Assembly: GCA_031253655.1 (NCBI GenBank)
Contig: JAIRVY010000066.1
Coordinates: 1 to 55,485 of the forward strand
Direction: 5' to 3'
Length of the DNA stretch: 55,485 nucleotides
Source: Bacteroidales bacterium
Lineage (GTDB): Bacteria > Bacteroidota > Bacteroidia > Bacteroidales > WCHB1-69
Positions within the stretch are counted from its first letter, which is position 1. Every line of letters starts with the position of its first letter. The notes under the pieces were generated by a model. It did not search any database and was not told the origin of the DNA. It saw only the letters and a program-made list of their open reading frames with translations. Both the position numbers and the translations under genes were made by a program. Below, in pieces: positions 11,273 to 50,200 of this stretch.

Positions 11273-14200
11273 CAGCCGATTAACCAGCAACCAAACCCAC
11301 CGAATAGTGTTCAGGTGCCCTTCAAACCCAGGGTGTCGAATACTGTTTCGGCGCAAAACCGTGCGGTTTACAGCATTAAAGGCGATTTTACCGCCATAGG
11401 AAATACCAACCTGATGCTGAACAGGACCGACAATAACCCGAACTTTCCCATTGACAATGCGGATCCGACTAAGCTGAAGTATGTGTGTATAGACTCGCTC
11501 AGACGAGATACCATCTTCAATGCCTCTGCCGCCAAGTTGGATTTGCCCGACGCATGCCACGGCATTGTGTATGCAGGCTTGTACTGGGGCGCACGCCCCT
11601 CGGATGCACCCGGACGAACAGACTCGCTGTGTGCCACCAAATTTGTGGAATGGCTGCACGACCACAAATTCTTCTGCGGAGATAATTTGCCCATCCCGCC
11701 CGGTGCTGACCCAAACCTGTATAAAATAACTTGTGATTATGTGCCGCTTTGCGGACCTCAGGGAAATAGTGGACAAGGGGTAAGATATTCAATTTATCTT
11801 GGTAGTCTCGTACCCCACTTATATGTACAGTTTGTAAGAATTCATTCCAATCAACCCAAAAATGTTCAATACATCTTTCGAATTGGTAACACTATTCATC
11901 AGACTAATGGAGACAATTATCAATACCCGATGTGGATAAATAATGTAGTACTTTACCCGGGATATGATACGTACGATAATATGACTATTGAGAATCATTC
12001 TTACTTAAATCCGGGTGAGCCGTGTCCTTCGGGCGGAGTTCCCACCACAACATTTACTTTACCTGTACCTCTCGTAATTAGGCAAGCCGGTTGTGAATTT
12101 ACCATAAGGTCTATTACCCGCCCATTTGACGATGTAACTCAAAGCATAGTAGAAAGTTGCAGTTGGTTTGATGGCAAATTCTATATCTATGATAATGTTA
12201 CCAAATGTATGCCAAAGGCGCAGGTAAAACTCAAACATGAAAGCGATGCCAACTATACTTTGATTAATGCTGTGCACAACAATTTTAGGCAGAATATTTT
12301 CTATCCGCCCAATACAAATGTTGCTACCATGCACAACCAATACATGTATGCGGCTTATGCCGATGTTACCAATTTTGTTCGTGCTTCGGGCAGAGGCGCG
12401 GGTTGGTACACCGTAGCAGATATTGCCACAAATGAAGGCTTAGGTGGAATAATTGGTTTACATGCCGGATGGGCAATGATTGTGGTGTACGAAAACAGCG
12501 AAATGCCCTGGAAAGATATTATTGTGCAAGACGGCTTTGTGAACTTCCTGTCTCAGAACAGCTCGGAGATTTTGGTGCAAGGATTTAATGCCAAAGAGCG
12601 TGATGATGTAGGAGTTAAGATTTGTGTGGTGGGAGGTGAAGGAGATATGGGTCAGGACGGAGACTATTTTCAGGCGTTTGTGCACAATAATGTGGTTCCT
12701 TCTTACAACAGCTTCCAGTTTATTAACAGAGACGGTCAAATATACACCGAATCTTCAGCCGTACCCTCTAACTTTATGCGTTGCCACATACAAGTTCCCA
12801 TGGCACCGAGTACGGAAATATGCAGAATGCCAAACCTCACCAACAACCCCGGTTTTGATATAGCCCAATTTATGCTTAACAATACCGACAGACGTTTTAT
12901 TGGCTACGGACAAAATTCGGCAAGATTTCGTTTGGGTACCAACTACGACAACTTCAACTACTTCGCTTTTGCCATGTCGGTGGATGCTTATATGCCTAAA
13001 CCGGAAGCCATTAATATAGTGCAAAATGTGGATGTTGCTACCCCGATTTTTGATCCCGAAACAGGTGAACCTTTACTCAGTCCGGGCGATATCATAGATT
13101 ACTCTGTGGATATCAGACTAAGAGGAGACGAACCCGTGGACAGCCTCATCCTCCGAATCCCTATCCCTTATACCACTAAATATCTTTCCAATATGTCGCA
13201 CGCAACATATAATTGGAATTGCGCTCGACTACAAGGACCGGAAAACAGAAATTCGATAATAGGTAATGTGCCGCCTTGTGATAACAATTCGGCAATCCGC
13301 TTCGATGAATCGGTAGCTCCTAACGGGATGATTGAATGGTATGTAGGAGACTTTATCTACTTGTCGGACTCAACGTTTTATACCGATTTAAGCAACCCCA
13401 ATCCTGCCCTTCACGATTCTACCATTACCTATACTTCTACACTCTGGTTTGCGGGATTTGAAATATTGGCAACGCTTTACTTTTCGTTGGAGATTACCGA
13501 TGACTGTAAGGCATTGGCAAGCGGCGATGACCCATGTAAGGCAGGTGTGGTGGTATGGGGTTCTTCTTCGGGAAGAGGACATATTACGCATACTTACTTT
13601 AGCGACTGGCCTATGGTTTATGGTATGCAAGAATCCCCTTGCGAATCGGAATATGAGATTACACCGCCGAGATTTTTGATAGATATTCCTATTGATTGTC
13701 AAGGCGACGAAGTCGAAATTCTTGATATTCAATTGTGTAATAATTTAACAGGAAGCGATATTTACTATTATGTAAGGTCGTTCTTTCCGATAGGAACGCG
13801 ATTTTATGATTTTGATGATATTGACGCTAACTATTTTCCTAGTATAACAGCGTTGGAATATGATGAAAATCATCCATTTATACCCAATAACCCGAGCGAT
13901 CCCAAGCCTTGGAAACTATTTGTAGGACTTCCGGGCGATAATAGCGGAGGAGATTGTATCTTTATGTTCAACATAGTGGAAGCTCATGTGCCGAATTTAG
14001 AATTAACAATAGAGAATCCTTTTATTCTTTGCGAAGATGAAGAAATTAATTTAACCGAATTAATTGATATTACAGACGACTCAGGGGTTAGTTATACTGT
14101 GCAATTTTACAGAAATCCAACAGGAACGGTTCCCTATTTTAGTTACACCCCTCCACCGGTTCCGGATAAGTTTATTACTCCTCTAGTTGACACCACTTAT

Positions 14201-17200
14201 TACGTGAGATTGCGGGTGGACGGTACCATGTGTTATACAAATTTAACCCCTATTGTTATTCAGGTAATACCCAAGATGGATATCAGTGCCGAAGAAATTA
14301 CTATTAACACTTGCAGTGATGTTACATTCAGTGTTGATCCTACAGTCATTTTCGGTAGTAATATTATTCCTGAGGTTACCGTTTACAGCTGGGCTGCTCC
14401 TTCCGCTCCTGACGGCGTTTCCGGTATGGCAAGCGGTAATGGAGAGTCAACCATTACCGGAAAACTTACGAATACTACCAATAATATTCAAAAGGTTACT
14501 TATATAGTAACTCCTTTTGTGCCCAGAGACAACGGCTTGCCCTGCGAAGGAGAAGATTTTGAGGTTGATGTATGGGTATATCCGGTAGTTCCCGTGCCCG
14601 TAACTACCTCTCTGAATGTATGTAGAGGCAGCAGTATCTCTTTAACAGATGCAGTGCAGGGATACAATTCTACGGATTTTAGTATATACAACAGTTCTAC
14701 AAGCGACAGTCCGTTAACAAATCTTACTATTACAGACATTCAATCAAACCATACTTATTGGGTTTCACGAATAGTAACCTATACCGACATGGTTTGTGAA
14801 AGTTTTAGAGAAGAGATTCAAATATTTGTACAAGAGCCGGAAGTGCCCATTGTGGCAACTATTCCGGGTATCTATTGCGAAGGGACGCAGGTTACGCTTA
14901 CAGTTACCGGTCTCACCCACTATAATTTAGCAAACGCCACCATAAACTGGTACAACCAGGCAGGAACGCTTTTAGGCTCCGGAACCTCACTGGCAATTTA
15001 TTTGCCATCCACAAACCCGATGGCAACTCTTACCTATTATGCCGAAGCAGTGTTTTCTCCAAACCTTCCCACCGGACTTGGATGTAATACTGTTGTGAGA
15101 ACACCGGTTACGATTACAGTTAGACCTTATGCTTCTACTTCGCAGGTGGCTTCAACAACCGGCGCAACAATATGTACCGGCAATACGGCAACTATTTCAG
15201 CCACAGCAGCTATAACCGGCGCTAATGCCGTAACTAATCCGGTAATCCGGTGGTACGACAGTCCAACGTCCACAACTGTGCTTCCCAGCACACAAGTGGG
15301 CGCTACGAGCAGTTTTACTACTCCAACACTTTACAATCCGCCTTCGGGAACTTACACCTATTATGTTTCGGTATCCGGAGATAATTTTTGTGAAAACCTT
15401 ACGGCAAATCGTGTTCCGGTAACAGTAACCGTACGCGAGCAGCCCATACTAACTCTTAAAACTCAAGATGAAATTTATTCAAAATGTTATAATCAATCTT
15501 TTGTTATTGTTCCCACACTAACGAATAATACTTACAATCCTGCCATCAATCAGTGGTATATAAGGGAACAGGGTAGTGGCACTTGGCTACTAGCCGCTAC
15601 AAGTATTTACTCTACGTGGTTCTCTCCGGGACCGAGTGGAAACTCTCTGGTTAATACTATTTTTACCCCTACCAACAGCTTGATAAATAACTTTGAATTA
15701 CGATTAGTAGTTAATACAGAGTATTGCGGGCAGGTGGAGGATTTCATATCCTTGACCATTCTTCCTAATCCTACTAATTATACTCTCCAATTGGTTGAAC
15801 AACCCTTATTAGCCCAGGATATTTGCGAAGATACCGTTTATACGGTTAAAATTAAATCTACCGACATCGGTTTAATTAACAATATTACAGTTAGTTTTTT
15901 AGATGACGACAATACCTTGCTTGGAGTAAAAGATGCCTATTACAGTACAGATATCAATGCACCGGATGGAAATTGGTTACAATTGACTGAAATATGGCGA
16001 AACGACCCCACCGAGAACTCGTCTACAGGATGGGCATTCCCTCCCAATTACGAATTGGAAATAAGTGATTCGGTGTATGTTAAAATTTTTGTATATATTG
16101 GATGCGATTTTTATTCCGGCAGCCCTTATGCCATTCGAGTAAACGCAAAAGATTATTGTGGTTACGATATTACACCGGCTCGAACTGTACCCACCGATAT
16201 TTTCAGAGCAAAATTCAGTGAAGATGGCTTTGGTTTTACATACGATGTGTTGTGGAGATTTGACCCTCCTGCCTTATACAGTTCACCGCCTACACAATAC
16301 TGGTTCACAGATGCAACCCCGCAAATACCGTTAGCACAAAACTATACCGGAGATATTATTACATGGAGAATTGCCTTTGTTCCCCATTCAGACGATATTG
16401 TCAGCAACCCATACACCTCCGATTCGGACAGGGAATCCTATTGGTTTTTGATTCCAAATGGATTTGAAATACTCGGCTATCAAAATATTAAAAATGCTCC
16501 TACCGACTGGGAAGATTTTGATATTTTGGGAGATATTTTCTATTTGCCCGCAGGAATTGAATTCGGACATCCGATACCTTCCGGATTATCAGACGGTGAC
16601 AGTATCATTTTTGAATTTACTTTATCGACTTATAATGCCGAATGTAAACTATTTGAAACATACGCTTCTACTTGGTTCACGCTGGAAGATATTTACTGTG
16701 GCGGTGAACTTTGTGAAGGTATTAATGATAAAACCGGAGAATCTTATCCGAAAATTGAAGTAACCGGTTCTGCTTTCCATCTGTTAGACCCGCAGGTTAC
16801 TACTGCGGCTCAAAGAATTATTACTCAAAATAGTTGGGGTGGTAAAGTGGATTTCGAGGTAGATAAGCCATTCCAGACAGGCGGCAGAATATATGCCGAT
16901 TTCTATATTGATAGCGATAAAAATAATAGATTGGATATTCTTACAGACACTAAAATTGCCTCCCAGATTATTCCCACGGGCAATTGGGCATCAGGTACTT
17001 TTACCCTCGATTTCTCTAACGTTCCTTTTGGTAAAGACGACCAACTTTTTGTACGCCTGTATAGCGACTCCATTATTTGTAACGAAGTAGTTTTTCCAAT
17101 TGCTACATTATGGGGCAAAGATACCATTTGCGAAGGCGACACGCTGTTGCTTACTGCTCCCGAAAGAGGAACTTTGTATAGTTTTATTCCTTCCGATCCC

Positions 17201-20200
17201 GTTAGGATGCTTCGCCAACCTGCTCCGGGAGATTTTGATTACACCCAGAAACCCTGGATATACAACGTATATTGCCCGGAAAAAGGTAATTATTATGTTG
17301 ACTTTACCTATTCTATAAACCTTGAGAGTACCACAACACAGCTTATCGCTGCCCGTTACCCGATTACAGTACTTGAGATACCAAAACTGGTACTTACCGG
17401 ACCTGATTCAACGCGAATTTGCCAAGATGCCTGTGTGGACTTGATGCCATTTATTGCAGAAACTACCGGATTACCCGGTATCATCATTTCTGTTTTCGAC
17501 AACGGAACAAAGGTAGGAGATGATAGCACAGACGGAACTATTATTGTTTGCCCCGATAAAACTACAATCTATACTTTTAAGGCAAAAGTAGGTACGGATG
17601 GCTGCGACGAAGAAGTTGAAATCCCATTCAAAGTGTATGTAGATGAGATGGTAAATATTTGGTCTATCGGAGCGCTTACCTATCCGGGGTGCAAAGATAC
17701 CGAGGGTTCGGTATGGTTCTCCGTGTGGGATATCAATAACTATAGTAATGAATACGAATACAGTATTAATAATATTGCGGGACCTTTTTTTCCTTTGGAT
17801 GTAGATCCCCTCTCCGGTATTGCCATTGTGGACGATTTGGCGTCGGGAACTTACATATTTTACGTGCAAAACACAACAGCATTTGCCTGTTCTCCCTCGC
17901 AAAGTTTGCCTATAACATTGCCTCCAATAAATTCCGATATTACAGTGTCCGCCGAAATATTAACCCATCCCTCCGATTGTGATGCCACAGACGGAGTGGT
18001 GCAGATAGTAGTGAGCGGAGGTACTTCCCCATACAAATACAGAATTGGAATAGAGGGAAGTTGGGAAGAGTTGCCTTTAGACGGATTGTTAAATGATTTT
18101 AGTTCAGGAAAATACTACATTTATATTATGGATGACAACGAGTGTGTACATCCGGTGGAAGAGATTTTTATGAAACCCATTTCCGGAATGACATTGAGTT
18201 ATGTAATTGACTCTCATTCCGATTGTGAAGAATATGGACAGGCTACCATTACCGTTAACGGCGGTACGCCACCTTTCCAATACCGATTAAACAGCCAAGG
18301 ATGGAAGCCCATAACGGGTAATACCGTTACTGTGGATGCTTACACCGGCTATAATTCAGTTACTGTAGTTGATTCAGAAGATTGTACGCAAGATGTGGAG
18401 TTTACAATTGATTTAGAAAATGCTGAATTTGAGATTCTCCCATTTGCGAAAACTGATGCCACCTGTTTCAACGATATGGGAGGTACAATTACGGTTACCG
18501 TTAAAAGCATAAGCGCTTTACTTCAAAATGTTACAATCAGTTATGGAGTTGGGACTCCGGTTACTTTACCCCTTCCCGCTAATGGTACTATTACTCATAC
18601 TATTACAGGATTGGGTGTGGGCACCTATGAAATAGAGATTAGAAATGATAACGATTGCTACATTAGGTATCCGGGAGTTACTATTGAATTAGATAAATTA
18701 GCGTTTATCAATATTGGTTCAATTAGCGTAGTTACGCAACCCACCTGCACCGACAGCGGCGGCAGTATTCACTTAGTAGTATTTGGCGGCATAGGCGAGA
18801 CGCCTGAATATGAATACAATTTCGATAATGGATATACTTTCTACCCCCTTCCTCCCGACGGAATTATTTCCGGATTAAAAGTGGGATTGCACTACTTATA
18901 TATAAGAGACAAAAATGCGCCCTCATGTGCCATCTCTATCGGTGGTCCCATACGAATTACCCCTAACTCCAGCAATCTTTTTGTTGAGTTGTTAGGAGTT
19001 GCCGACGCCACCGATTGTGAAACCCCCAACGGAACAATCTTCTTTGCGGCTTCCGGCGGAGAACCCCCTTACAAATATTTCCTTGACGGTGTTGAACTTA
19101 CGACTCCTAAGCCAACCGGTGGCGTAATTTCGGGAGTTGCTTCAGGCTACCACGAACTTTATATTTCCGATGCTACCGGATGCAAAGCATTCGCAGAGAA
19201 AATATTTATTAACGCTACAAACTTTGAAATAGAATGGGAACTGATAAAAAATGCCGACTGTTTTGAAGATGGCCAGGTTGAGATTACGATTTCAGGCGGT
19301 CAGCCTAACTATTCTTATCAGGTATCGCTTCACGATAACTTTGTTTCTTTTGCAGGAAATACCGCTACCATTGACTTTCATGCAGGGCATTATTATATTG
19401 TAGTAAAAGATGCTAACGGTTGTGTAAAACGAGAAGAATTTCAAATAGGATTATCAAACGATGAAATTGTATTACAAATAGTTGCGGTAACACATGCCGA
19501 TTGTGAAGGCACCGATGGAGGTACCATTACTTTCGATTTACAAGGCAGCACAGGCGCCAATTTTGAATTTAGAATATTTGAAGAATGGGAACCCGTTACC
19601 CAACTACCATTCACTATTACCGGTTTGGCAGAGGGTATATATGCCTTTTATATCAGAGATGACAATGAATGTGCCCTCATATTTACGGAAGTTCCGGTTA
19701 CCTTGGAGAGAGTTCCCAACATAACGATAAGTTCTATTTCAGTGGTTTCGCAGCCCGATTGCGGCACTAATACCGGTTCCATTCAATTAGTAGTTACAGG
19801 CGGAAGCGGAAATTATCAATATCAAATAAACGGAGCTGGAAGTTTTTTCAATCTACCCTCATCGGGTATTATCAATAGTTTCCCGGCCGGAGTTTACTAT
19901 TTTCTTGTTCGGGAAGTTGGAAACACTGCTTGTCCTTATGCCATCACCGATAAAATTACTTTATATCCTACAAACGGCAGTATTGTGGTAAGTTCTAAAA
20001 TAGTTAACGCTTCTTCCTGCACATCTTCCAATGGTGGGGTGCAGTTGTATATTAGCGGCGGAACGCCATTTTTAGATGGTATGGGCTATTATTACAATTA
20101 TATTATTGAAAACCAAACAACACTGAATCCTACTTATGATGGAAGAATTACATCCTTGGCGCCCGGCGACTATGTGATACACATTTTTGACGCTACCGGT

Positions 20201-23200
20201 TGTAAAGTGAGTACGCTGGTTACTATTGGTGTGAACCCCGATAACAATATCGGGCTTGATTTCACCTCTATCGTGGCAGCAGGATGTAACACTCCCGGCT
20301 CATTTACTTTGATAGCAAGCAATGGTGTACCTGTATATCAATACAGTATCAACAGAGGAGGATATATTCCTTTCATGGGTAGTACAGTAATAGTTACAAT
20401 TGGCGCAGGCACCCATTTTGTAGAATTGATAGACGGGAACGGCTGCTATACTTCAGACTACGTAACCGTTAACCCAAATACAGGTTTTACGGCTTTTGTG
20501 AGCTCTGTTGTGGATGCACATTGTGATGGGACAAACGGGGGAGAAGTAGTAATTACTTTTACAGGCTCTCCTACAAAATATATTGTTAACAACATTGAAT
20601 ATCAACTTTCAGGTTTAACAGGAGACAGTTTCACCATTCCGGACTTAGCTCAGGGAACCTATACCATAGATATTGTATATGGAAGCAATTGTGTTTATAC
20701 TATTGATAATGTGAAGATAAACCACGATTCAAACTCACCCGTAAAGATAGGCTCGGTATATGTGGTTCGACAACCGGAGTGTCAGGGAAGTGGAGGAAGA
20801 GTGCAGGTAGTAGTTACCGGTGGAAGTGGAGAGTATTACTACAACATTGAAAACGTTTGGAGAGATTTTACTCTGCCCGACGACGGCATTATCTTTCTTG
20901 GAGTAGGAAACTATCATATTTATATTTGGGATAAAAATAATAGAAATTGCCCTGTTGTAGTTAGCAATCCGGTTATTCTTACCCCGAATACCAGCGACCT
21001 TAAAGTGTTGGCAACCACTGCGGATGCAACAGGGTGTTATCCGGCAACAGGTTCCATAATTGCAGAAACCTGGGGTGGCTCAGGCACTATCACTTACAGT
21101 ATCAACGGAGAGGATAAAGGTGTATTTCCGCCAACAGGTAATTTGGGAAGTAACTTCCGTTCGGGAGTATATTCTATTATGGTGTATGATGAAGAGGGTT
21201 GCAGCGCAGGTACGGAAGTATTTGTACTTGCGAATCCTTTCAATATTAACTTCCGCTTAGAAGCGTTACAAGAAGCAAATTGCAATGGAAAGGGACTTTT
21301 GGCTATTGAAATTATCAGAGACCCCATAGATGAAACTAATTGGCGTTATCAGTTAGATGGCGAAAACTGGAAAATCTTCCCGTCAAACTATGTGACAGAA
21401 CCGGTTACAGCCGGATGGCATACCGTTATTGCTATGAATGATGCCGGATGTTATTCACAAAATGTTATTGAAATTCTAAACACTTCAGGAATAAGATTAT
21501 CAATACCTGTAACAACAGATGCTTTTTGTCAGGGTATAGCTGTTCCTCCCTCATCGGGAGGCACTATTACATTTGATATTGATGGCGGAACTGCCCCTTT
21601 TACCATCACAAATAATAGTAATATCCTTGAAACAAATGTTCCGGAGGGCTCTTATACCATTTACGGATTGCCGGTGGGTGTTTATGAAATCACTATTACC
21701 GATGCCAACGGTTGTATAGCAACGCTCGAAAAAATATCTATCAAGCGTTCCGACGACTACTACTTTGCAGTAAACGACTACAACTATACCTATTCCGGCG
21801 TGTTGGTAGGCGGTAATATTTTTGATAATGACATTACGCTAAATAACGCAACCATTTTATTTGACCTCGATTATTATGCAAGTACTGTAGTAACATTAAA
21901 CGGTACTTTTACTTTTTCTGTAAATGGGGATTATACGTATTTACCCCATTCCGGTTTTTGCGGTGTAGATTCAATACGTTACTACGCTTTGAATGATTGT
22001 GGATTGAAAAGCAACGCCTGGTTATACATTACCGTATTCGACCAGAATGTTCCTAATTCGCCGTTGCCTCCAATTGCAGTTGCCGACTTCTATTCTACTA
22101 CCCGCGGAATTTGTATTAACCAAATGGATGTGAGGGCAAACGATGCTGAACGAAACGGCAGCACATTAACATTGCCTCAGGTTGTCTCCGGAAAAGAAGT
22201 ACAACATGGTATATTGACATCAAATGGTGATGGCACTTTTGAGTATTGTCCCCATCCGAACTTCTTCGGAGAAGATGGTTTCGACTACGTGGTTTGCAGC
22301 AATGCTGCCGGTACATACTTCAATTATTGCACCGGTGTAGAGCAACCCCTTTGCGATACCACACACGTTACTATTCTGGTACTCAGAAATGACTTTACCG
22401 TATTTGCATTCCCCGATTACTATACTACCGACCAGGAAACCATGCTGTTTGGCGGAAATATTTTACACAACGACATCTACCCGGCCGGTTCTACTCCGCA
22501 AATAACCTTGGTTCCGGGTTCAGGAACTAGCAACGGTTTATTAAATCTGAAGGAAGATGGCACCTTTGAATATCTGCCTAACCCCGGATTCTTTGGTACT
22601 GATAAGTTTGAGTATGAGTTGTGTGTAGAGATAAACAACGAAATAAAATGCGACATTACAACAGTTTATATATTGGTAGTTAAAAAAGATTGTCCAATTG
22701 TGACTGCACCCAACGTGAGCAACCCGCAGACATTCTGTTTGCCGGCGTATGTTAAAGATTTGATAGCCTACGGACAAGAGGTGAAATGGTACTTATCTGC
22801 AGAACCGGAAGAGGAGGAAGAACCATTAGATCCGGAAGAGACTTTATTAGTTGCCGGACAAGTCTATTATGCTTCTCAAACGGTGAATGGATGTGAAAGC
22901 AAAAAACGCTCGTTTGTGAAAGTATTGGAATCTGAAGATTATATGATTGCTGCGCCCAATATTTTAACACCGCAATTCTTCTGTGAGGATGCAACCCTTG
23001 ACGATTTAGTTACCGACGGGTTGCCGGTGAAGTGGTACAACGCTACCGGTACGGAATTGCAGGGAACTACAAATCTTGTGAATGGTGCTACGTATTATGC
23101 AGCCCGTTTGGCAGGAGATTGCGAAAGCGCTAAACGCACTCCGGTACAAGTTATAGAAACCAACACTTCTATTTCCTACCCTGTTGCTCCTCAAAGATTC

Positions 23201-26200
23201 TGTGAAGGAGCAACTATAGGAGATATTTTGTTAACTTATTACGGAGAAGTAAAATGGTATCCAACCCTCACTTCTACTCTTGAATTATATCCGGGTACAC
23301 GATTAACCACCGGCATCTACTATGTAGAGTATCAGGTGGGCAGTTGCCAAACTACGAGCCGCATTCCTGTATCCATCACTATAGATACATACGGACCCCC
23401 TGTTGCAAATGCTCTTCAGGATATGTGTCCCGGTGCAAAAGTGGGCGATATTATAATTGCCGGCGCCGGTATTGTGTGGTACGATACCCCGACAAATGGC
23501 AATGTTGTAGATTTGGGCGACCCGGTGGTGCATGGTAAAACCTATTATGCAGTGCAAACCAACGGCAATGAAGATTGTGCGGGTGCAAGATTGGCTGTAA
23601 TAACCAACATCTTTATTCTCAATCCACCCATAGTAACTACACCGCAGGAGTTTTGCGGAGCCACTACCATAGACCAATTGTATGCAAGAGGTTTGAATAT
23701 ATTGTGGTACGATGAAAACATGATTCAAGTTCCTGCAGGAACATTTCTTCAAAACGATAAATTATATTGGGCAACACAAAACAACGGACTTTGCGAAAGT
23801 GAACCTTCTTACGTGAAAGTGAATATTACGGATGATATAACTTTGGATAAACCGGTTGTGCCCTCTCCTCAAAATTTCTGTGCTGCAGACCCGGCTACCG
23901 TTGCTAATTTAAAGTCGAACGGAGAATATGAAATAGTTTGGTATTCTCAAGCTACAGACGGTAGTCCATTGCCATTAAACCAAAACTTAACAGCCGGCAC
24001 CTACTACGCGGCAAGAAAAGCAGGTACCTGCGAAAGCGCTGAGCGTACCCCGGTGGTGGTTAACCGTGCGTTCCCTGATCCGCCTAATACTTCTGTACAG
24101 CAGTTCTGCGAGGGAGCGATTATCGCAAATATTCAAACACCACATCCCAATTTTATTTTCTATGAAACATTAATATCTGAAATTCCGCTTCCTCCTTCTA
24201 CGGTTCTTAGGTCGGGCGTCTATTATGCGCATCAAACAGACGGGATAAATCCCGCTTGTATCAGCACGGGGAGAGGAATGTTTGTGATAACTATTTCGCA
24301 ACCAACTGCTCCTATAGTGAAGGCTGAGCAGCATTTCTGCGGGAATCCCAAAGTTTACGACCTGGCTGCCACAGGACACGCATTGAAGTGGTACGACAGC
24401 AGATGGCCCAATGCGCTGCTTAACCTGGACTCTCCTTTGGATAGCGGCGCTACTTATTATGTAGAACAAACCAATGGCGATTGTAAGAGCCCCAGAGAAT
24501 CGGTGAAAGTACATATTTACAACTACGACGCTCCCGATATAGAATCCCCGCAAGGATTCTGTCCGGGTACTTATCTGTCGGCGGTGAATATGCCAAATCC
24601 TGTTCCGGGAACCTACTTTGTATGGCACGATGAAAATGGAAACGTGATAGATCCGGCCACTACACTTCTACTCGGCGGAGACCAATATTTCTTAGTGTTC
24701 CAAAGAAACCCACACTGCGAAGGTCCCGAAGCAAAATTAGAAATCATTATTTGGGAAACTGCAACCGAGGCGAATATCATTGCCCATCCGGTAAACGTAT
24801 GCACCGGAAATAGCGGCGTATTAACCGCTTCAACTCCGGCACCTCCATCTCCTTTCAATGTTATTAGCCCTACCTATTATTGGTATGATTCAGACGGTTC
24901 TTTCTTAGGCAATGGCGCTACTTATACCGAGTCGCGCACGGAAAGAATAAACGTTACCCAAACTACTACCTACACCTATTATGTGGCCGTAAAAGGTTTT
25001 GAAATTTGCGAAAACGAAGTGAATGCAAGAAAAGAGGTAACGCTTACAGTGCGCCAGGTACCGGAACTTTCAATTACACCTTTAATTGCAGGAATCTGCT
25101 ACAACCCCTCGGGCGGAAATAACTTTACTTTATACGCTCATATAGAGAATTATGATATTGACAGTGTTAACGGATATCAATGGTATCTGATAAGAGGAGG
25201 AGAGAAAATACCATTTAATACTTATGGAATAGGAACCATACCGGCATACGGTTCGGGACCTCTTCATTTGCCATTTATGACAATTCCTTTCGCTTATATA
25301 CCTTTATTTACGGACGCTGTAAACTATAAGATAAACTTATTATTAGAAGTGAATGTGTTGTATTGCGGTATGATAAGCGCCACGGTTGAACTTACTCTGT
25401 GGCCATTGGCTATCGACGGCGATATCACATTGATAAACGAGCCTACTGACCCGGTTACGCTTTGCGATGAGTTCGAATATGAACTTGAAATTGAATCTAC
25501 GGGAGAAGGGGCGCTTGCTGATATAATTATTGCATTAGATGACTATAAGAGTACAGGTATTCATGTAGTAGGAGGTGAATATCTATGGGTTCACCCCATT
25601 ACCGGTGAATCAGAATGGATGCCTATGATTGTAACGAAACCGACACTAGAGTATTATGAACTTGTAATACCGAACGAAGACTGGTCGGAGTTTGAAGGAT
25701 ATGAAAATGGCTTTGTATTGATACCCGGTAACAAATTACAGGTAAAAGTAATAGTAAGAACAGAATGCGAATTTTTTGCAAATTCCGACATTCGTTTTGT
25801 GCTCAATGCTACGGATGCTTGTTATGCTTTTACTTTAGACAAGAAAGAAGCCTATACATCTCCCATACAAGTAGAAGGATTTGACGCCGTGAACACCATT
25901 ACTTCCGATTTTAAAACGGAATTAATTGCTGAAAAGTTAGAAGGAGGAACATACGATTTTGGAACTTTCTCATCATGGCAAAACAGAGAATATCATCTGT
26001 ATAGTGATGCCGAAAAAATAGTTACTTGGAAAGCATTCTTTAATATTGATATCAGCCTACCTAACCTTAATACCGACTCTATCTTTTTCTTAATACCGGA
26101 TGGTATTCTCTTGATGCCGGGCCCTATTACATCAAACATTCCGGGATATAACCCAATACCGGTAATTACGTATGATGATGAAAACGGGATAGAATATGTT

Positions 26201-41200: not shown

Positions 41201-44200
41201 GCAAATCATATCTTAGAAAATGAAAAACGCTATTATGCAGCACTCCATATTTATGGAAATTGTATAAGCACAGTAAGAAAAGAGATACTTGTTTACATCA
41301 ATCCTACAGATTATAAATATCCAGAAATTGACCAAATGTTCTGCGATGAAGAGCGGTTTGTGAGCGACTTGGTTGCTACCGGATACGGATTAGAATGGTA
41401 TCTTGTTCCTAATAATTTTGGAACAGCATCACTTGCTTTAGATGTGAAATTGATACACGGAACTACCTATTACGGTGCCAACACAAATGGAAACTGTGCA
41501 TTTACTACTGTGGCAGTGAATGTATCAATTTATAATGGTGTACCTCCGCCAACGATTGCTTCTCCACAAGAATTCTGTATTCTATCGAATAACCACAGTT
41601 TAACATTGGAAGATATTCAGGTAGTTGCGGGCGACAACGTGAAGTGGTACACTTCAATAGATGCTACAGCTCCTCTTGCACCAAATACTATTTTAGAAAA
41701 CAACACACTCTATTGGGCTTCTCAAACTATTGGAACAAGTTGCGAAAGCGAGCGTACTTATGTAAAAATAATCCTCATTCTAAACAAGGTGATTCAACCT
41801 CCGGTAATTGATGATATTTATCTCTGTGAAGATATAAAAGGCGAAATTTCTGTAGGTGATTTACCCACAAACGGAATGAATATCAACTGGTATTATTCTC
41901 AATCTACGGACAATCCGGCATTACCGGACGACAAGATAGATGATGATATTACTCTATATGCTGCGTTAGTGGAAGGCGAGTGTCAAAGCGCAGGTTTAAC
42001 CAAAGTTGAAGTAATTTTTGAAACTACAATTTCTACGAAACCTGAAATTAGAGATACACTTTACTTCTGCGAAGGCGCGATGATTAGCACTATAATTGTT
42101 GACCACAACTTTATTAAGTTGTTCGCAACCGAAACTTCCACTACACCGCTACCGCTGAATACTATATTGGTTAATGATAGGGTGTACTGGGCTGCGTTTG
42201 TGGTTGGTGAAGATTGTATCAGTACTGAAAGAGTACCTGTAAGAATCATTATTGAACCCACAGGCCACTACTACGATGACCTCGTAGAAAACTTCTGCGC
42301 CGGAACTACAATTAGCGACATACATGTAACCGGATATGGCGTAAGGTGGTATCTTGATGCAGATTTGACCAGACCGGTGACAGATGATTACGGACTTTAC
42401 AAGTTAGAACACGATTCTACCTATTATGCTGCCAATACGCATGGCGAGTGTTCTATCATTATCTATGCTGTTAAAGTAACTATTTTCAGCGAAGTACAAC
42501 CACCAACAGTGAAAACACCTACGGAATTGTGCGTAGATGATTTAGAAGCGCCCCACGGACTCACTTTAGCCGATATTTGGGTACAAGGCAACAATATTCA
42601 GTGGTATGCTTCCGAAGAAGGAAATGATGCACTTGACTTAAATGAACCGTTAGTGGATGGTGAAATATATTGGGTAACTCAAACAATTATTGCCTGCGAA
42701 AGCAAACGTTCTTATGTAAAAATAAAATTGTTCGAAAGTACCGATATACCCGCTCCGGAAATCCCAACTGAACAAGAGTTCTGCGATGGTGGTATTTATA
42801 CTATTGCTAACCTGACCGTTCCAACAGGAATGAGAATTGAATGGCGTGATGAAAGTGGTGTTATCTATGCAGACAACACCCCACTTGTTGATGGAGAAAC
42901 TTATTATGCCTACCAAATTGTGGGAGAATGTGAAAGCACAGAACCTACATCGGTTACAGTTACCTTTGTGCCGACAATTACCAATACACTAAATATTGAC
43001 ACCGTACAGGTATTCTGCAAAGGCGCAATGATAAGCAGTATAGTAGTGCCATCGAACAATATTGTTTGGTATGCTGACCAAACCGGTGGATTACCATTGC
43101 CCGATAATACGATTTTGATTGACGGAAAAAAATACTACGCCGAGCTAAAAGTGGGTGGTAGCTGCGTAAGCAACGAAAGAAAAGCAGTTACCATCAAGAT
43201 TAACCCTGAAGATTACCAGTGGTTAGAAGAGATTCAATCCTTCTGCTGGGATGCCTTAGTGGGAGACCTCACAGTGATGGGATGGGGCGTGAAATGGTAT
43301 GAAGATGAAGAATTAACGGTAGGTCCATTAGAATTAACTATCAAGTTGGCACACGATAAAGTATATTATGCAGGAAATACCAACGGCGATTGTAAAATTA
43401 TTGCCGCTGCTGTTACTGCGAAAATATTTACAAATATTATGCCACCAACAGTTCAAACTCCGGTTGAATTGTGTACTACCGGAGGATACCTGTATTCATC
43501 CGATTTAATGTACAACGTGAACGGTATAAACCTCAAATGGTATAAAGATGCATACGGCACTATTCCGTTGGGCAACGACCATTTAGAAGACGGTGAAACC
43601 TACTGGGTATCTCAAACCTACGGCAATAATTGCGAAAGCGGTTTATCTCCAATTATGGTTATCATTAAAGAAAATGTAAATTATCCTGCTCCCGACATTT
43701 CAAGCCCGCAGTATTTCTGCGAAGATGGAGAATATACCTTAGAGGAGATGACCGTGCCGTCGGGTATGAATATTATTTGGTACGATGCTTTTGACAACAT
43801 CTTGCCAGAGACTACAATCTTAGAAGATGGTCAAACTTACTATGCAAGTAGAATTGTGGGCTCTTGCGAAAGCACGCAACGCACTGCTGTGAAAGTAGAA
43901 TTCCAACCTGTAATTGATGTTACACCTCATTTTGATGTGGATGAACTCTTCTTCTGCTACGGCGCTATGATTAGCGATATTGTAACTCCGGTAAATAACG
44001 TGGTGTGGTACTATAATCAGTTTGATAAAGTACCATTGGCAGGCGATCACCTGCTTGAAACACACAAATACTGGGCGACAATCCTTATAGGCGAAGATTG
44101 CGAAAGCACAAGTCGTGTTCCTATGGATATAGTAATTGATCCGGTTGATGATAGCTATCCAACATACGAACAAGAGTTCTGCTCCGGTGCAACTGTTAGC

Positions 44201-47200
44201 CACATCAGTGTTCAAGCGTATGGCGTTCAGTGGTATTTAGACAAAGACCTCATTATTCCTGTACCATTAACCAATGATTTGATTCACAATGCTACCTATT
44301 ATGCAGTGAATGTTAACGGTGACTGTGAAATAATCGGCGTAGCAGTCAAGGTTTATGTATATGATAATGTACTCCCCCCAACTACCCCAACAGTAATTGA
44401 ATTGTGTGTAAATGACATAGAAAACCATACGCTAACTTTGACAAGTTTGCTTAATTATGTTCACGGTACAAATATCAAATGGTATGATTCTGAGGAAGGT
44501 GGCAATGAGTTGCCGTTGAATACTCCTGTTAAAGATGGAACTATTTACTGGCTATCTCAAACATACGGAGCAGAATGTGAAAGTTTTGAACGTTCCTACA
44601 TCAAAGTTCTTCTAAATGAAAATATGAATATTCCTAAACCGGAAATTATCTCCCCAATTGAACTTTGTGCTACATTAAAATATAGTATCAAATTAAGCGA
44701 CTTGCCTGTAAATGGACAGGAATTGCTATGGTTTTTAGATGCTGCCGGAGATATCCCGTTGCTGCCATCGATGATATTAACCAACGACAATAACACATTC
44801 TATGCCAAATTGAAAGTAGGAACGTGCCAAAGCACAGAACTTACTCAAGTGTTAATCAACTTTGTACCGGTAAGTCATTACAAACCGATTGTAGTTACTC
44901 CGCAAAGTTTCTGCCACGGAGCAATGTTGAGCGATATTGTGCTAAAAGATAATGTGATTTGGTATGCTACCCAAACTTCCACAACACCGTTGCCAAGCAA
45001 CACACTGTTAAGTTCGGATACTTATTGGGCAGCCTTACATCTCGGAGGTACTTGCATAAGTACGGAAAGAGTGCCGGTAATAATCAAAATTAATCCTACT
45101 GATTTAACTGTTGATATCAGAGAACAACAGTTCTGCCTCGACGCACTTGTAAGCGACCTTATTACTTCCGGCTATGCCGTTAAATGGTATAAAGAAGTTG
45201 ATTTAATAAATGAAGTGGGTTTGGATGTAAAGTTGAAACACGATTCGGTTTACTATGCTGCCAGCACGAATGGTGAAGATTGCAAACTATTGGTAGATGC
45301 AATCAGAGCAAAGATTTACGACCACGTGCCTCCTCCAACAGTAGAAACACCTTACGAATTGTGCGAACAACAAGGCAATTTAACATTAGCTGATATTAAA
45401 GTACAAGGACAAAATATTAAGTGGTATGATGCCGAAGTGGATGGAAATCTACTACCAATAAATACCTTAGTTGAAGATGGAAAAATCTACTGGGTATCGC
45501 AAACCGTAGGCGTAGGCTGCGAAGGTGGTCGAACGTATGTGAAAGTGAAAATCACAAATATCAACAATGTTCCTGCTCCGGAATTGGAGGATATTGAACT
45601 ATGTGAAAACTTGAAAGGAATCACATTAGGTGAGGTACCTGTGAACGGACTCAATATCGTATGGTATGAAAATGTCGCCGGTACGATTCCGCTATTGGCA
45701 AGCAAAGTAATTAGCACTGACGTTACCTACTATGCGGCATTGAAAGTAGGGGAGTGTGAAAGTACCGAACTTGTTCCTGTGAACATCACTTTTGAGAGTG
45801 AAATTACCAAAACACCTCAAATTGATGACCAAATCTTCTGCTATGGCGCAATGATAAGTGATATTATAGCCCCAACCAACGTGGCGTGGTATTTAGATGA
45901 ATTTGTCGGAGCAAAATTGGAAAGCCACACTATCTTAGAATCTACTACTTATTGGGTTGCTTACGCTTATAGCGCTAATTGCGAAAACAATAATCGCGTT
46001 CCTGTAGAAATTACTGTTGGCATATCCAATGATAATTATTTGTATGAAGAACAAGAGTTCTGCTATGGAGCAGTGGTGGGTGATATAAAAGTGCACGGGT
46101 GGGGTATCAAGTGGTACACCAACCCCGAATTAACAGGCAACCCGTTAGCATTAACCGACCTGTTAATCCACAAAAATACTTACTATGCTGTAAATTCAAA
46201 TGGTGATTGTCAACTGATTCTTGCTGAAATTAAAGTATTTGTATATGAAGACGTGTTACCACCAACAGTTACCAGTCCCTACGAGTTATGCTCATTGGGC
46301 GGCGAACTAACACTGGGACACATCTATGTGCAAGGAACCAATATTCAGTGGTATGCAAGCCAATTTGGAGAAGTTCCGTTGCCGCTCTCTACAGTTATTG
46401 CAGATGGAGTTACCTATTGGGTATCTCAAACTCAGGGCAAAGCCTGCGAAGGTGGACGTTCACCGGTAAAAGTGAAGATTATAGAAAATATGATTCTTCC
46501 CGCGCCGAATGTACCAAATCCACAGCAGTTCTGTAATAACAAAACCTATCACTTATCCGATATTACATTACCTTTGGGAATGGAAATAAAGTGGTATAAC
46601 GCTGCAGGTGCAGAACTGCCGCTGAGTACGGAGCTAACAAACAACACTATCTATTATGCGTCTCAAGTAAACGGCGAATGCGAAAGTGCAGAAAGAACGC
46701 CAGTGCTCATACAATTAGTAACTGTGGTTACCAATAATCCTGATGTAATATCACCGCAGAATTTCTGCAACGGCGCGTTAATAAGTGACATTAAGGTAGG
46801 CACAAACAACATTCTCTGGTACCTCGAACCATCAGGTGGACAACCACTTGACCAGGATACACAGTTAAAAACCGGCATCTATTATGCATCGCTTATAACT
46901 GCCGAAGAGTGCGCAAGCACAGCACGCAAATCTATTCATATCTATATTAACCCCGAAATCCAACTCTTCGATACTACTCATCAGGTGTTCTGCTACGGAG
47001 CTTATGTCAACGACCTGAAAGCAACCGGTTATAATGTGAACTGGTACACAGACAGGAATTTGACCGAAGAATCGAAAGTGAGTCTTGGTGACCTCATACA
47101 ACACGGAACCATTTACTATGCCGCCAGCACAAATGGCGATTGCAGAGTTATTGAAGTAGCCGTGAGGGTAAGCGTGTATGAACATGTTTCTCCGCCAAAT

Positions 47201-50200
47201 GTAAGCAGCCCGTATGAATTATGCTCGATGGGAGGTCAATTTATTCTGGCAGATATATTTGTACAAGGCGAAAATATCACATGGTACTTAACCGAAGACT
47301 CAGAAGAACCACTACCGCTCAACACACAAATTTTCGATGGAGACGTGTTCTGGGTATCTCAAATGTTTGCTACCTGCGAAGGAGGACGTTCTTATGTGAA
47401 AGTAATAATCAAAAATAACCTGATTATTCCTGCTCCCGAAGTAATAACTCTACAATATTTCTGCGAAACAGGTACATACCACATCCACGATCTGATTGTG
47501 CCAATCGGAAAGAACATTGTGTGGTATAACGAAACAGGAGACTTATTGTCTGCTGATACAGAATTAGCAGAAGGCGTAACTTATTACGCTGCCGAAAGGG
47601 TAGGAGAGTGCGAAAGCGCAGAACGTACCCCCGTTACCGTAACATTCGACGAACTTCTCAAGATTGTATTGACAATTCCCGACCAGGGATTCTGCGACGG
47701 CGCAGTAATTGGTGATATTATCGTTCCTTACGAAAACATCAAGTGGTATTACAACTTTGAAGATATTACTCCTTTGAGCAAAATTGAAAGATTGTTGTCC
47801 CATACTTTCTTTGCAGAAATAGATTGTGATGACAACTGTGCAGTTACAGAACGTGTTCCGGTGGTAATTACTATCGGACAACCGAGTGTGGTTGCTACTG
47901 ATGCCGAACAAAACTTCTGTGAAGGTCAGTTTCTTATTGAAGACCTGAAAGTATTTGGCTTCGGTGTTACCTGGTATCCAACACCAAATTCAAACGTACC
48001 GTTGGATATCAAGACGCAGTTAGTACACGGAAATACCTACTATGCCGTAAATAAAAACGGGAATTGCGAAAGCGAAGAGCGCGTTGCAGTAACGGTATTT
48101 ATTTACGAACATATTGCTCCGCCAACTGTAGAATCACCGTTGAAATACTGTGTATCTACTAATCCCGGACTAACAGTAGAAGACTTGAAAGTATTATCAG
48201 GTGTGAATATCAGGTGGTATGATCAGGAGTTTGAAGGCAACGAACTGCCTCTCAACCACAAATTGATTGACGGTGGTATCTATTGGGCATCTCAAACGAT
48301 GGCGTACTGTGAAGGTCCCCGCTCATTTGTGAAAGTTGAGTTTGATCCCGATATGGTAGTGCCCGCGCCAAATATTCCTTCTCCACAACTATTCTGCAAC
48401 TTGGGAGGAACAACCTTAGGCGACCTTGTGAATATGAATCAAGACCTGTTGTGGTATTTCAATGAAAACGACATCATCCCAATGTCGCCCTCAATACCTG
48501 TAATCAACGGGCACATTTACTATGTATCCCAAAAAGTAGGCGAGTGCGAAAGTACTGAGCGTACCCCCGTGTTAGCTATATTCAGCAACGTTATTAGCAT
48601 TACTGTTGAAATACCGCCACAGGCTTTCTGCTACGGCGCATTGTTGAGCGACATCGTTACTCCGTACCAAAACATTGTTTGGTACGAAACAATGACCTCT
48701 ACACAGCCATTGCCGATAAACACGCAGCTCAAAACCAAGATCTATTACGCTGCAATGAAAGTAGGCGAGTGCATCAGCACCATTAGAATACCTGTACCGG
48801 TTACAATCGGAATACCTTCCAACGTGATTACTGATGAATATCAAAACTTCTGTGGAAGCGCAATTATTGCCGACCTGTTTGCCATAGGATTTGGTGTGAA
48901 ATGGTACGAGTCTCTTGAGGCTACCGAACAATTGCCATTAGACCACCCGTTAGTTGACGGTGGTACGTACTGGGCAGTGCAAAGCAACGAAGATTGCGAA
49001 AGCAACCGCGTGGCAGTTCTTGTAACCATCTATTCTGTACCCGAACCACCCGAAATGTTGGATGATGTTGCGGCTGCTAAGTGCGAAGGTGAGACCATTA
49101 CAGTTGAGTATCTGCTCGGTTTGATTAATAATGAAGGATACGATTATGTAATCTATGTGGATGAGGCGTGCAAAATGAAACTCACATGGGATATTATTAC
49201 GGATCTATCGGTAGCATCTTCCCATACTTTCTATGTAATGGCTTACCATCAGGGAACTAACTGCTCGCACAGCGTAGAAGACGCCTTGAAGATAGTGGTA
49301 GTAGTGAATCCGCGTCCAGAACCACCGGTTATTATTACAGGTTCTCTGCTTAGCGTTTGCGATGGCGAAGTGATTACCCAAGAATGGTTAGAAACTTTCA
49401 TTTCTTATAACAATGCAGAAGTAATCGTTGAGTTCTATCTCGATCCGGCTTGCACGATTCCGTTTGCTAATATCACTACAAATTATGCCATTGCAACTTA
49501 TCATCAAATCTATGTAATTGCAAGAAACATAACTACCGGCTGCGCTACCAATGCAGAAGACGCATTAGTAATGACCGTGATTGTAAATCCACGTCCAAAT
49601 GCTCCTATTGAAATACCCTACGCAAACGCAAGCGTTTGCTCCGGCGAATGGATTACCGAAGCCAAACTATACAGCTTAATCTATTATGATCCTTTACAAG
49701 TTAATGTAGAGTTTTATTTGGATCCGGAGTGCACCATTCCTTTCGAACCAATCCTTACCGACTATGCCGAGGCAATATCGCACAAAGTGTATGTAATTGC
49801 CAGAAGTATGGCTACCGGCTGTGTTACCTTTGCAAAAGATGCCTTAGAATTGACCATCACTGTGAATCCGCTACCGGAAGCACCCGAAATTGAGGATAAT
49901 GCCATCCCTGCAGTTTGCGATGGCGATATCATTACGATAGGAACCTTGCTTACATTCATCAAATACAACCCCGCTTTAGTAACCGTAGAGTTTTATTTAG
50001 ATAAAAATCTGAATATTCCGTTTACTAATATCCAAACCAACTATGCTGTGGCTACCTACCACACTATCTATGTAGTTGCAAAAGACAAAATTACGGGCTG
50101 TGTAACCGCTACTGAAGATGCATTGGAATTGATAGTGCAGGTTGACCCGCTACCGGTAATGGAAATGCACAACCTCATCTATTGCGATGGAGAAGATGTG

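Follow-up and report, generated by a model that had tools for sequence, protein, structure and literature searches.

How did a single bacterial gene come to hold the same ordered series of different protein modules twice? The window considered here (the whole stretch of DNA analyzed, 55,485 bp) contains one uninterrupted open reading frame (ORF) on the forward strand (11174–53494) that encodes 14,106 aa and remains stop-free for 42.3 kb, and an earlier note had proposed that a five-part module series occurs in it twice. The source is an uncultured Bacteroidales bacterium, and the nearest valyl-tRNA synthetases bearing a taxon name are from Lentimicrobiaceae and Bacteroidales MAGs. We consider it very probable that the product is a giant secreted surface protein in which a cassette, extending from an Ig_7 unit to a two-Cys array, was block-duplicated long ago inside the gene, with the copies then diverging.

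Modular layout of the giant protein

The coordinates of the earlier note proved right and in frame: 15128 corresponds to codon 1319, 24758 corresponds to codon 4529, and 49039 closes codon 12622 of the single ORF. Copy A comprises aa 1319–4528 and copy B comprises aa 4529–12622. Both have the same module order, namely an Ig unit, a D module of ~750 aa, an array of SprB-like units, three cadherin-like units, and an array of two-Cys units. While this order was borne out, the five module classes that had been recognized represent four families, since Pfam Ig_7 (PF19081) takes in both the two-Cys units and the Ig unit, the latter as a distinct subtype. The unit counts in A and B (16 and 8 SprB-like, 3 and 3 cadherin-like, and 9 and 80 two-Cys units) were reproduced with profile HMMs built from the protein itself, and the quoted junction motifs are all readable in the translation (TVTVRE and TLTVRQ; AVNDY and AVDDY; DCPIVTAPNVSNPQTFC and DCPHIMPPRVTSPQTFC).

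All parts of the giant protein listed here are encoded on the forward strand. Copy A begins with the Ig unit (aa 1319–1421; 15128–15436), an Ig_7 subtype that ends in TVTVRE, followed by the D1 module (aa 1422–2165; 15437–17668), which is predicted to be all-beta and is cysteine-rich and without a Pfam family. These are followed by 16 SprB-like units in a 4 × 4 organization (aa 2168–3531; 17675–21766), three cadherin-like units of the Big_9 and Cadherin_5 type with a borderline NF012211 (tandem-95) match (aa 3532–3848; 21767–22717), and nine two-Cys units of Pfam Ig_7 (aa 3849–4528; 22718–24757) that comprise two 4-unit super-repeats and one degenerate unit. Copy B comprises an Ig unit ending in TLTVRQ (aa 4529–4627; 24758–25054), the D1 homolog D2 (aa 4628–5395; 25055–27358), eight SprB-like units (aa 5404–6079; 27383–29410) and three cadherin-like units (aa 6078–6375; 29405–30298), both identified by in-house HMMs, and 80 two-Cys (Ig_7) units (aa 6376–12628; 30299–49057) that form 20 super-repeats of four units each. 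The HMM limits of the cadherin-like triplets are aa 3532–3851 (A) and 6078–6377 (B), and those of the copy A two-Cys array are aa 3849–4536.

The two-Cys and Ig units matched Ig_7 with 116–164 bits (gathering cut-off 27.3), and in copy A the strongest Ig_7 match falls on the Ig unit (aa 1328–1420). Pfam SprB repeats (PF13573) were detected in both copies (A, E = 7e-26; B, E = 4e-18), with 24 units identified by the in-house HMM. The cadherin-like units clearly match Pfam Big_9 and Cadherin_5; against NF012211 (cut-off 90 bits), the copy A triplet scored 90.3, just at the cut-off, and the copy B triplet scored 79.4, below it. The ~750-aa D module had no match in Pfam, NCBIfam, or PDB. Its core is predicted to be all-beta (pLDDT 78.7), and structure matches of the core model were to generic multi-sandwich structures only. 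Judging from the Pfam matches and the D model, the giant protein appears to be built of beta-sandwich modules and exported by T9SS.

The N-terminus resembles a signal peptide (MKDFYNSLRKTKAAIFTLFLAIGFSILPVCVEA/Q), in which a basic n-region, the hydrophobic stretch AAIFTLFLAIGFSILPV, and then VEA/Q can be read off the translation. The N-terminal region (aa 1–1045; 11174–14308) occurs once within the protein, has no sequence match in Pfam, NCBIfam, or PDB, and is ~32% conserved in an ortholog (MDR2083734.1; here P0001). A PKD_5-like unit and two Ig_7 units (aa 1046–1318; 14309–15127) directly precede copy A. Beyond the duplicated blocks, the C-terminal region (49058–53254) comprises about four ~95-aa repeats (aa 12629–13010), PKD_5-like repeats (aa 13011–13700), and more beta-rich sequence, and the protein ends in a T9SS type A C-terminal sorting domain (CTD; 53255–53491) identified over the last ~78 residues by TIGR04183 (43.4 bits; cut-off 23) and by PF18962 (31.4 bits; cut-off 27). 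The gene downstream encodes an OmpA-family beta-barrel protein with no PorP_SprF match, and the divergent neighbor encodes an M6 peptidase with a sub-threshold Por_Secre_tail match (24.2 vs. 27 bits).

Homology between the copies and nested repetition

The colinearity of A and B is far above chance, as indicated by two colinear HSPs in a BLASTP comparison of the copies. One pairs aa 1333–2842 with 4542–6069 (26% identity, E = 3e-95) and the other pairs aa 2850–4506 with 5396–7034 (36% identity, E = 0). The earlier note had let its proposal depend on similarity between D1 and D2, and these modules align end to end (749 columns, 22% identity, E = 5e-23), with a score of 298 vs. 48 ± 7 for 200 shuffles (z = 36). 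The D core without the terminal Ig-like pair gave z = 26, with each half significant, and neither D module matched the N-terminal or the C-terminal part of the giant protein (z about 0–1).

Individual units also correspond by position. IgA and IgB are reciprocal best matches (score of 121 vs. at most 85 for any other unit), and the start and end of the macro-block, which are weakly defined within the Ig_7 arrays, rest on this match. Among the cadherin-like units, A1 pairs with B1 (137) and A3 pairs with B3 (212); among the SprB-like units, A9–16 pair with B1–8 (A9-B1 161, A14-B6 122, A16-B8 121); and among the two-Cys units, A1–4 correspond to B1–4 and A8 corresponds to B80. This correspondence of the end units indicates that the extra length of the copy B two-Cys array is internal.

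The phase pattern of array B, together with the homology of A and B, indicates that the three nested levels of duplication described earlier (unit, 4-unit super-repeat, and macro-block) genuinely exist. Units four positions apart in array B have a mean pairwise score of 141, vs. about 65 at other lags, and each of the 80 units has its best match in the same phase; the super-repeats are 301–320 aa in length, with a mutual identity of 28–48%. The first eight two-Cys units of copy A have the same phase as array B. A 4-unit period was also identified in the SprB-like arrays, where the 16 units of copy A represent two 8-unit sets and copy B holds one.

Self-comparison of the gene at the DNA level yielded only 16 weak matches (at most 75% identity over 101 bp), and TRF identified no tandem repeats in the gene DNA. 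These observations indicate that the gene has undergone neither duplication nor conversion recently and that its assembly is unambiguous. All three levels of duplication are sufficiently old to be frozen at the DNA level, and the gene therefore assembles cleanly.

Relatives and age of the duplication

The D module, described as unique in the earlier note, is not: a D profile identified 27 cluster representatives at E < 1e-30, and the module defines a family of giant Bacteroidales proteins with the cassette present one, two, or three times. D-module proteins have so far been found only under the names Bacteroidales, Odoribacter, Lentimicrobiaceae, or Bacteroidota, and several are from single-cell genomes labeled OttesenSCG, which we take to be insect-gut samples. 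MDR2083734.1, MDL2296571.1, and MDL2314665.1, which are ‘tandem-95 repeat’ or ‘Ig-like domain-containing’ proteins from Bacteroidales MAGs and single-cell genomes, are true homologs. Such entries share the N-terminal region, D modules, and cassette architecture with the giant protein; they are uncharacterized, many are flagged as partial, and their architecture has not been described. Unlike the giant protein, some have three cassettes or a FISUMP end. The D module and the conserved supra-domain cassette could improve the annotation of giant Bacteroidales proteins bearing these names.

Two orthologs are informative with respect to the number of macro-blocks. P0001 aligns in a single HSP to aa 1–7669 of the giant protein (41.6% identity), and L006 (Odoribacter sp. 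OttesenSCG-928-L07) aligns to aa 1758–7594 (41.1% identity). Both have two macro-blocks (1–3 in the wider family) and share, in independent assemblies, the D-16-3-9-D-8-3 layout of the giant protein; both end inside array B, and the comparison of counts covers 16/3/9/8/3. For every module, the identity between paralogs (28–44%) is lower than the identity to the ortholog P0001 (41–55%). In distance-based trees of the very divergent D sequences (1–2.4 substitutions per site), D1-type modules form a clade with bootstrap support of 96–99 out of 100, and a D2-type core clade from several genomes has support of 100 out of 100. The placement of D1-type and D2-type modules in separate, well-supported clades suggests that the duplication predates those lineages. 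Collectively, the homology of D1 and D2, the positional orthologs, the lower identity of paralogs than of orthologs, and the separate D clades support the earlier suggestion that the duplication is old.

Other family members have one, two, or three cassettes with differing boundaries (D-Spr4 three times; two-Cys-D three times). The D copies of these members group by lineage, indicating recurrent intragenic duplication. In some relatives, a C-terminal FISUMP domain is present in place of the T9SS CTD, suggesting that the route of export or anchoring is not uniform across the family.

Origin and possible role of the cassette

The composite cassette, in which the SprB-like units come in multiples of four, would have been copied as one block within the gene, most likely by unequal recombination between the Ig_7 units flanking it, and before this lineage parted from relatives whose present identity is about 41%. 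By then, the 4-unit super-repeats would already have been in place. Following duplication, the copies would have diverged to their present 28–44% identity, and the arrays would have come to differ, with two 8-unit SprB sets in A vs. one in B and 20 two-Cys super-repeats in B vs. 2 in A.

It is unlikely that block B was instead brought in from outside, through recombination or fusion of this gene with a giant paralog or a tandem copy. Several paralogs are present per genome (one Odoribacter single-cell genome has both L004 and L006), and D2-type modules also occur in other contexts, as in P0002 and L004, which have two-Cys-D repeats and no SprB arrays. Moreover, after such divergence, the pattern left by unequal crossover in the gene is the same as that left when a paralogous gene fuses or recombines with it. 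However, no trace of an N-terminal domain or signal peptide remains in block B, and both junctions fall in Ig_7 arrays, the places most prone to unequal crossover; duplication within the gene is the simpler explanation. Because the two-block layout and identical counts are common to the orthologs, any event involving an outside source would be equally ancient.

Readings that dispense with a duplicated block altogether fare worse. Repeat families that expanded separately in two places, with their order set by assembly rules or convergence, could account for flanking modules that all derive from easily expanding families and for unit numbers that differ between copies (16 vs. 8 and 9 vs. 80). 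This is nevertheless extremely improbable, since the D modules, which are not part of a repeat array, show homology over their whole length, single units are positional orthologs, and the junction sequences match; the homology of D1 and D2 and the positional orthology of units refute it. Long repeat genes are notoriously prone to mis-assembly, one complete metagenomic contig makes up the window, and the orthologs at about 41% identity end within array B, such that the repeats might have been joined or inflated and the blocks or the 80-unit array might not exist in one molecule. We regard this as highly improbable, given that the gene has no DNA repeat of >75% identity over 100 bp to confuse an assembler, that its 42.3-kb reading frame stays open, and that the A-to-B junction and unit counts recur in two independent assemblies.

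With ancient duplication inside the gene as the preferred explanation, the locus shows growth of a giant surface protein at three levels: units, 4-unit super-repeats, and a whole heterogeneous cassette. It is a well-documented case of the growth of an adhesin-like giant and reveals no new mechanism or system. Cargo with a type A CTD is cleaved and then attached to the cell surface, and the domain content suggests that the protein is probably a long fibril, tethered C-terminally after CTD processing, with an adhesin function. The 80-unit array would form a cell-proximal stalk, and, farther from the cell, both cassettes and the N-terminal domain would serve as binding elements. Unit counts kept across orthologs at about 41% identity suggest that array length may be under selection. 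A more tentative and somewhat doubtful possibility is that the cassette (D module, SprB-like units in multiples of four, and three tandem-95 units) is a discrete binding ‘head’, such that the presence of one, two, or three copies sets fibril valency, that the arrays are length-selected rulers rather than repeats that expand freely, and that D is a new multi-sandwich family of ligand-binding modules. The ruler reading draws on the exact counts (16/3/9/8/3) in orthologs ~41% identical and on an 80-unit array without DNA-level homogenization. The cassette offers defined pieces to express for structural and adhesion studies.

SprB, the gliding-motility adhesin of Flavobacterium johnsoniae (6,497 aa), is filamentous and located at the cell surface. 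Like the protein described here, it is a giant T9SS-secreted Bacteroidota surface protein of beta-rich repeats; both SprB-like arrays of the giant protein contain Pfam SprB repeats (PF13573), as do other SprB-repeat proteins. Unlike SprB, the giant protein has a type A CTD (TIGR04183) rather than type B: when the C-terminal 1,484 aa were scanned against NCBIfam, no type B CTD (TIGR04131) was found, and TIGR04183 was the sole domain match. Furthermore, no PorP/SprF-like gene adjoins the ORF, the downstream gene being of the OmpA family; SprB repeats account for only some 14% of the protein, which additionally contains Ig_7, tandem-95, and D modules; and its length is more than twice that of SprB. 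In titin, as in other giant modular proteins, Ig-like domains are organized in super-repeats. As here, same-position domains of successive super-repeats are closer than neighbors, with low identity and no DNA homogenization; titin is unrelated, being from another kingdom and with another function, and the giant protein adds duplication of a heterogeneous, multi-family cassette. The RTX/Bap-type proteins LapA, LapF, BapA, and SiiE also combine a long beta-sandwich repeat stalk with distinct non-repeat modules. However, these are type I secretion substrates with RTX C-termini, whereas the giant protein combines a Sec signal-like N-terminus with a T9SS CTD. The repeats of RTX/Bap-type proteins mostly belong to a single type and are frequently almost identical, unlike those of the giant protein. 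The cadherin-like units have a weak NCBIfam match to BapA/Bap/LapF adhesins (E about 1e-7, below cut-off).

Two colinear cassettes in a single giant gene

One open reading frame at positions 11174-53494 of the forward strand (14,106 codons without a stop) contains both cassette copies proposed in the earlier note, the coordinates of which are in frame: position 15128 is codon 1319, the start of copy A (aa 1319-4528), position 24758 is codon 4529, the start of copy B (aa 4529-12622), and position 49039 closes codon 12622. As read from the translation, the N-terminus is signal peptide-like, with basic residues and a hydrophobic stretch followed by VEA|Q. The C-terminus comprises a type IX secretion system (T9SS) type A sorting domain (TIGR04183, 43.4 bits, cut-off 23; PF18962, 31.4 bits, cut-off 27). 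The gene is intact and its product bears the hallmarks of a T9SS type A cargo.

Profile HMMs built from units of the giant protein itself reproduced, in place, the unit counts claimed for copies A and B (16 and 8 SprB-like, 3 and 3 cadherin-like, and 9 and 80 two-Cys units, respectively). The quoted junction motifs are legible in the translation, and the shared module order (Ig unit, D module of ~750 aa, SprB-like array, three cadherin-like units, two-Cys array) was recovered by BLASTP of copy A against copy B as two long colinear alignments, the first pairing aa 1333-2842 with 4542-6069 (26% identity, E = 3e-95) and the second aa 2850-4506 with 5396-7034 (36% identity, E = 0). While the order of the five proposed module classes stands, their number is reduced to four families, since Pfam assigned both Ig units and two-Cys units to Ig_7 (PF19081). 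SprB (PF13573) was also among the repeat classes, the cadherin-like triplets matched Big_9, Cadherin_5, and Cadherin_4 (tandem-95 repeats in NCBIfam), and PKD_5 was detected near either end of the protein. The modules so identified belong to Ig-like, cadherin-like, or PKD-like families, and an all-beta fold is predicted for the D core.

Repeat families on either side could by themselves produce colinearity of this kind, and the earlier note regarded comparison of the D modules of copies A and B (D1 and D2) alone as decisive. D1 and D2 can be aligned along their full length (749 columns; 22% identity, E = 5e-23), and their Smith-Waterman score is 298 versus 48 ± 7 in 200 shuffles (z = 36). Removal of the terminal Ig-like pair leaves a core with z = 26, and either half is significant. 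Neither D1 nor D2 resembles the N- and C-terminal regions of the giant protein. Together, the homology of D1 and D2 and their dissimilarity to the terminal regions indicate that the colinearity is not a by-product of flanking repeats.

Individual units also correspond by position. The Ig units of the two copies are mutually best (121 versus ≤85 with any other unit), and the first and third cadherin-like units of copy A are reciprocal best hits of their counterparts in copy B, with the second a near-tie (A3, 145; B2, 138). SprB-like units comprise four types with a period of 4; the claim of 16 versus 8 units is accordingly retained but amended, in that these arrays are super-repeated as well. 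Units B1-8 match A9-16 (A9-B1, 161; A12-B4, 92; A14-B6, 122; A16-B8, 121), so that the array of copy A comprises two eight-unit sets and that of copy B only one. Mean pairwise scores in the two-Cys array of copy B are 141 at lag 4, 128-132 at lags 8, 12, and 16, and about 60-68 elsewhere. The four-unit super-repeat reported previously is strict, with a same-phase best match for each of the 80 units (phase lengths of 82.8, 79.1, 75.0, and 75.8 aa). Units 1-8 of the array in copy A share its 0-1-2-3 phase, and best matches link A1 to B1, A3 to B3, A4 to B4, and A8 to B80, the final unit of copy B. The shared phase and corresponding end units indicate that the four-unit super-repeat predates the block duplication and that the difference in array length resides in the interior. 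As judged from unit-to-unit similarity, positional orthology between copies A and B shows that the block was copied. Unequal recombination between Ig_7 units flanking the cassette is the simplest account of how the duplication arose.

A third, partial cassette was rejected. D, SprB, and cadherin modules were sought in the N-terminal 1,045 aa and C-terminal 1,480 aa, and the sole match was a weak SprB-like one at aa 13879-13944 in the C-terminal part. Positions 49058-50203 (aa 12629-13010) encode about four repeats of ~95 aa that share 36-44% identity and represent another two-Cys type (C.GE.IT...EFYLD..C...). In the relative P0002, this unit type directly follows the D module, replacing the SprB array.

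Distribution of the cassette and age of its duplication

A word-index homologue search with D1 returned no matches at E ≤ 1e-3, and an exhaustive HMMER search with a D1 and D2 profile was needed to reach homologues. This identified 72 cluster representatives at E ≤ 1e-3, including 27 at E < 1e-30 that are mostly 1,500-7,600 aa in length (the remainder are shorter, some ~300 aa). Named relatives are from Bacteroidales, Odoribacter, and Bacteroidota and are annotated as 'tandem-95 repeat protein', 'Ig-like domain-containing protein', or 'DUF11 domain-containing protein'. The D module, described as unique in the earlier note, is therefore a family module. An initial genome scan based on a two-sequence alignment used patterns from weakly conserved columns and confirmed nothing; a second scan, based on an 11-sequence alignment, yielded six loci, although its pattern fits neither D module of the window.

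Screening of relatives with the four module HMMs revealed that the macro-block, which does occur twice in the giant gene, is better described as a family-wide cassette present in one to three copies. Module orders were D-16-3-9-D-8-3-17+ in the orthologue P0001 (MDR2083734.1), ...D-16-3-9-D-8-3-16+ at locus L006 (Odoribacter sp. OttesenSCG-928-L07), D-15-3-5-D-12-3 in P0003, and D-16-3-6-D-12-3 in P0004. Three cassettes were identified in P0007, D-Spr4 x3 in P0005, P0006, and P0009, [two-Cys-D] repeats without SprB arrays in P0002 and L004, and a single cassette in P0013, P0014, P0015, P0020, P0027, and P0032. P0001 aligns with aa 1-7669 of the giant protein as one HSP (41.6% identity) and L006 with aa 1758-7594 (41.1% identity), and the A/B junction and the counts 16/3/9/8/3 thus recur in two independent assemblies. 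The cassette is an evolutionary unit. Collectively, the observation made in the earlier note is confirmed and its interpretation as a duplication is supported, with four amendments.

Neighbour-joining reconstruction of 31 D modules (100 bootstraps) recovered a D1-type clade (96-99/100) comprising D1-type copies from six two- or three-cassette proteins and seven single-cassette proteins (P0013, P0014, P0015, P0011, P0023, P0018, and P0026). A D2-type core clade (giant, P0001, P0002, and P0003) was supported in 100/100 replicates. These separate clades indicate that the D1/D2 duplication is ancestral to these lineages. The D modules of P0005 and P0006, three in each protein, form a group of their own, and cassette duplication has recurred elsewhere in the family with differing breakpoints.

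The C-termini of P0004 and P0005 carry a FISUMP domain (TIGR02145; E = 8.5e-25 and 3.9e-22) in place of the T9SS C-terminal domain (CTD), as is probable, judging by eye, for P0007 and P0008. Members with this ending keep the N-terminal region and cassettes of the family, and the replacement indicates that the C-terminal targeting or anchoring module was swapped within it.

The duplication was proposed to be old, and for every module the identity between copies A and B is indeed below that between the giant protein and P0001: 28% versus 41-42% for D, 31-33% versus 48% for SprB, 44% versus 50-55% for cadherin-like, and 43% versus 52% for two-Cys modules. The 20 super-repeats of the copy B array are mutually just 28-48% identical. 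Recent expansion, gene conversion, and contingency-locus behavior were rejected because DNA-level repeats are missing: Tandem Repeats Finder detected none, and blastn of the gene against itself returned 16 weak matches (≤75% identity over 101 bp), none linking copy A to copy B beyond the two-Cys arrays. The lack of such repeats also leaves nothing able to mislead an assembler.

The D module and putative surface display

D sequences had no significant match in Pfam, NCBIfam, or PDB, and the best match (galectin-13, E = 0.03) was taken as noise. An AlphaFold2 model of D1 from an alignment of D1 and D2 only was discarded (pLDDT 32.7); with the 11-sequence alignment, the D core (aa 1507-2085; mean pLDDT 78.7) is predicted to form a chain of beta-sandwich domains. 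Foldseek returned only generic multi-sandwich matches (TM ≤0.23), including alpha-2-macroglobulin MG domains, integrin legs, Gram-positive pilins, and SdrD, and we therefore assign D no specific function. Ten cysteines are invariant in the family alignment, and a DFYIDxNNNGxxD motif is conserved; the motif resembles the calcium-binding loops of SdrD-B-type domains, which we regard as a lead only. Nothing suggests an enzymatic role for D.

By analogy with type A cargo and SprB, the protein would be exported, its CTD removed, and its C-terminal end attached at the cell surface. In this arrangement, the 80-unit Ig_7 array would form a cell-proximal stalk, with the two cassettes, separated by a nine-unit spacer, and the N-terminal domain displayed distally. 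Scaling from the SprB filament, which measures about 150 nm for its 6,497 aa, would put the length of the fibril at a few hundred nanometres. Relative to P0001, conservation among long segments is lowest in the N-terminal region (32%) and in the D modules (39-40%), the short Ig unit of copy B is also low (34%), and the arrays are most conserved (38-54%). This pattern is compatible with binding parts that vary while the scaffold is conserved. In a more speculative reading, the cassette might act as a binding head, with the arrays as length-selected rulers.

The giant protein, known here from sequence, is likened in function to SprB-type and Bap/Lap-type giant adhesins by analogy. Strictly speaking, it falls outside the SprB family, because its CTD is type A rather than type B and the gene downstream encodes an OmpA-family beta-barrel protein instead of a PorP/SprF homologue. 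Its nearest relatives are uncharacterised database entries. Titin similarly combines a strict super-repeat with low identity, an analogy only. Literature searches found no papers on this cassette or architecture; proteins >10,000 aa are reported to be rare (10.1101/2023.11.21.568195). The giant adds an unusually large and cleanly documented member to a kind already known, the giant T9SS beta-sandwich surface proteins, and is not a new system.

Genomic neighbourhood

The window is an entire metagenomic contig of 55,485 bp. The closest named relatives of its valyl-tRNA synthetase (ValRS) (79%) are from Lentimicrobiaceae and Bacteroidales MAGs. The giant gene was not found in the relative whose ValRS is most similar (86% identity; contigs L007-L009); the NADH dehydrogenase/antiporter side is kept there, and TonB-dependent receptor genes occupy the side of the giant gene. 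The locus is thus non-syntenic even between fairly close relatives.

Immediately upstream, a 194-aa ORF (positions 10424-11008, forward strand) has no Pfam or NCBIfam match. Downstream, a gene beginning 86 bp past the giant gene stop (positions 53580-55193, forward strand) encodes a 537-aa protein that combines an OMP beta-barrel with an OmpA-like peptidoglycan-binding domain. The two genes might share a transcript, with this protein serving as an anchor or partner of the giant; a conserved downstream partnership was rejected, as no equivalent ORF was seen downstream in the distant relatives L002 and L003. On the reverse strand, positions 5660-10273 encode a divergently oriented 1,537-aa protein with M6 (immune inhibitor A) peptidase, InlB B-repeat-like, and cadherin-like domains. 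Its match to a T9SS sorting domain is below threshold (24.2 versus 27 bits), and it may be a second T9SS cargo beside the giant gene.
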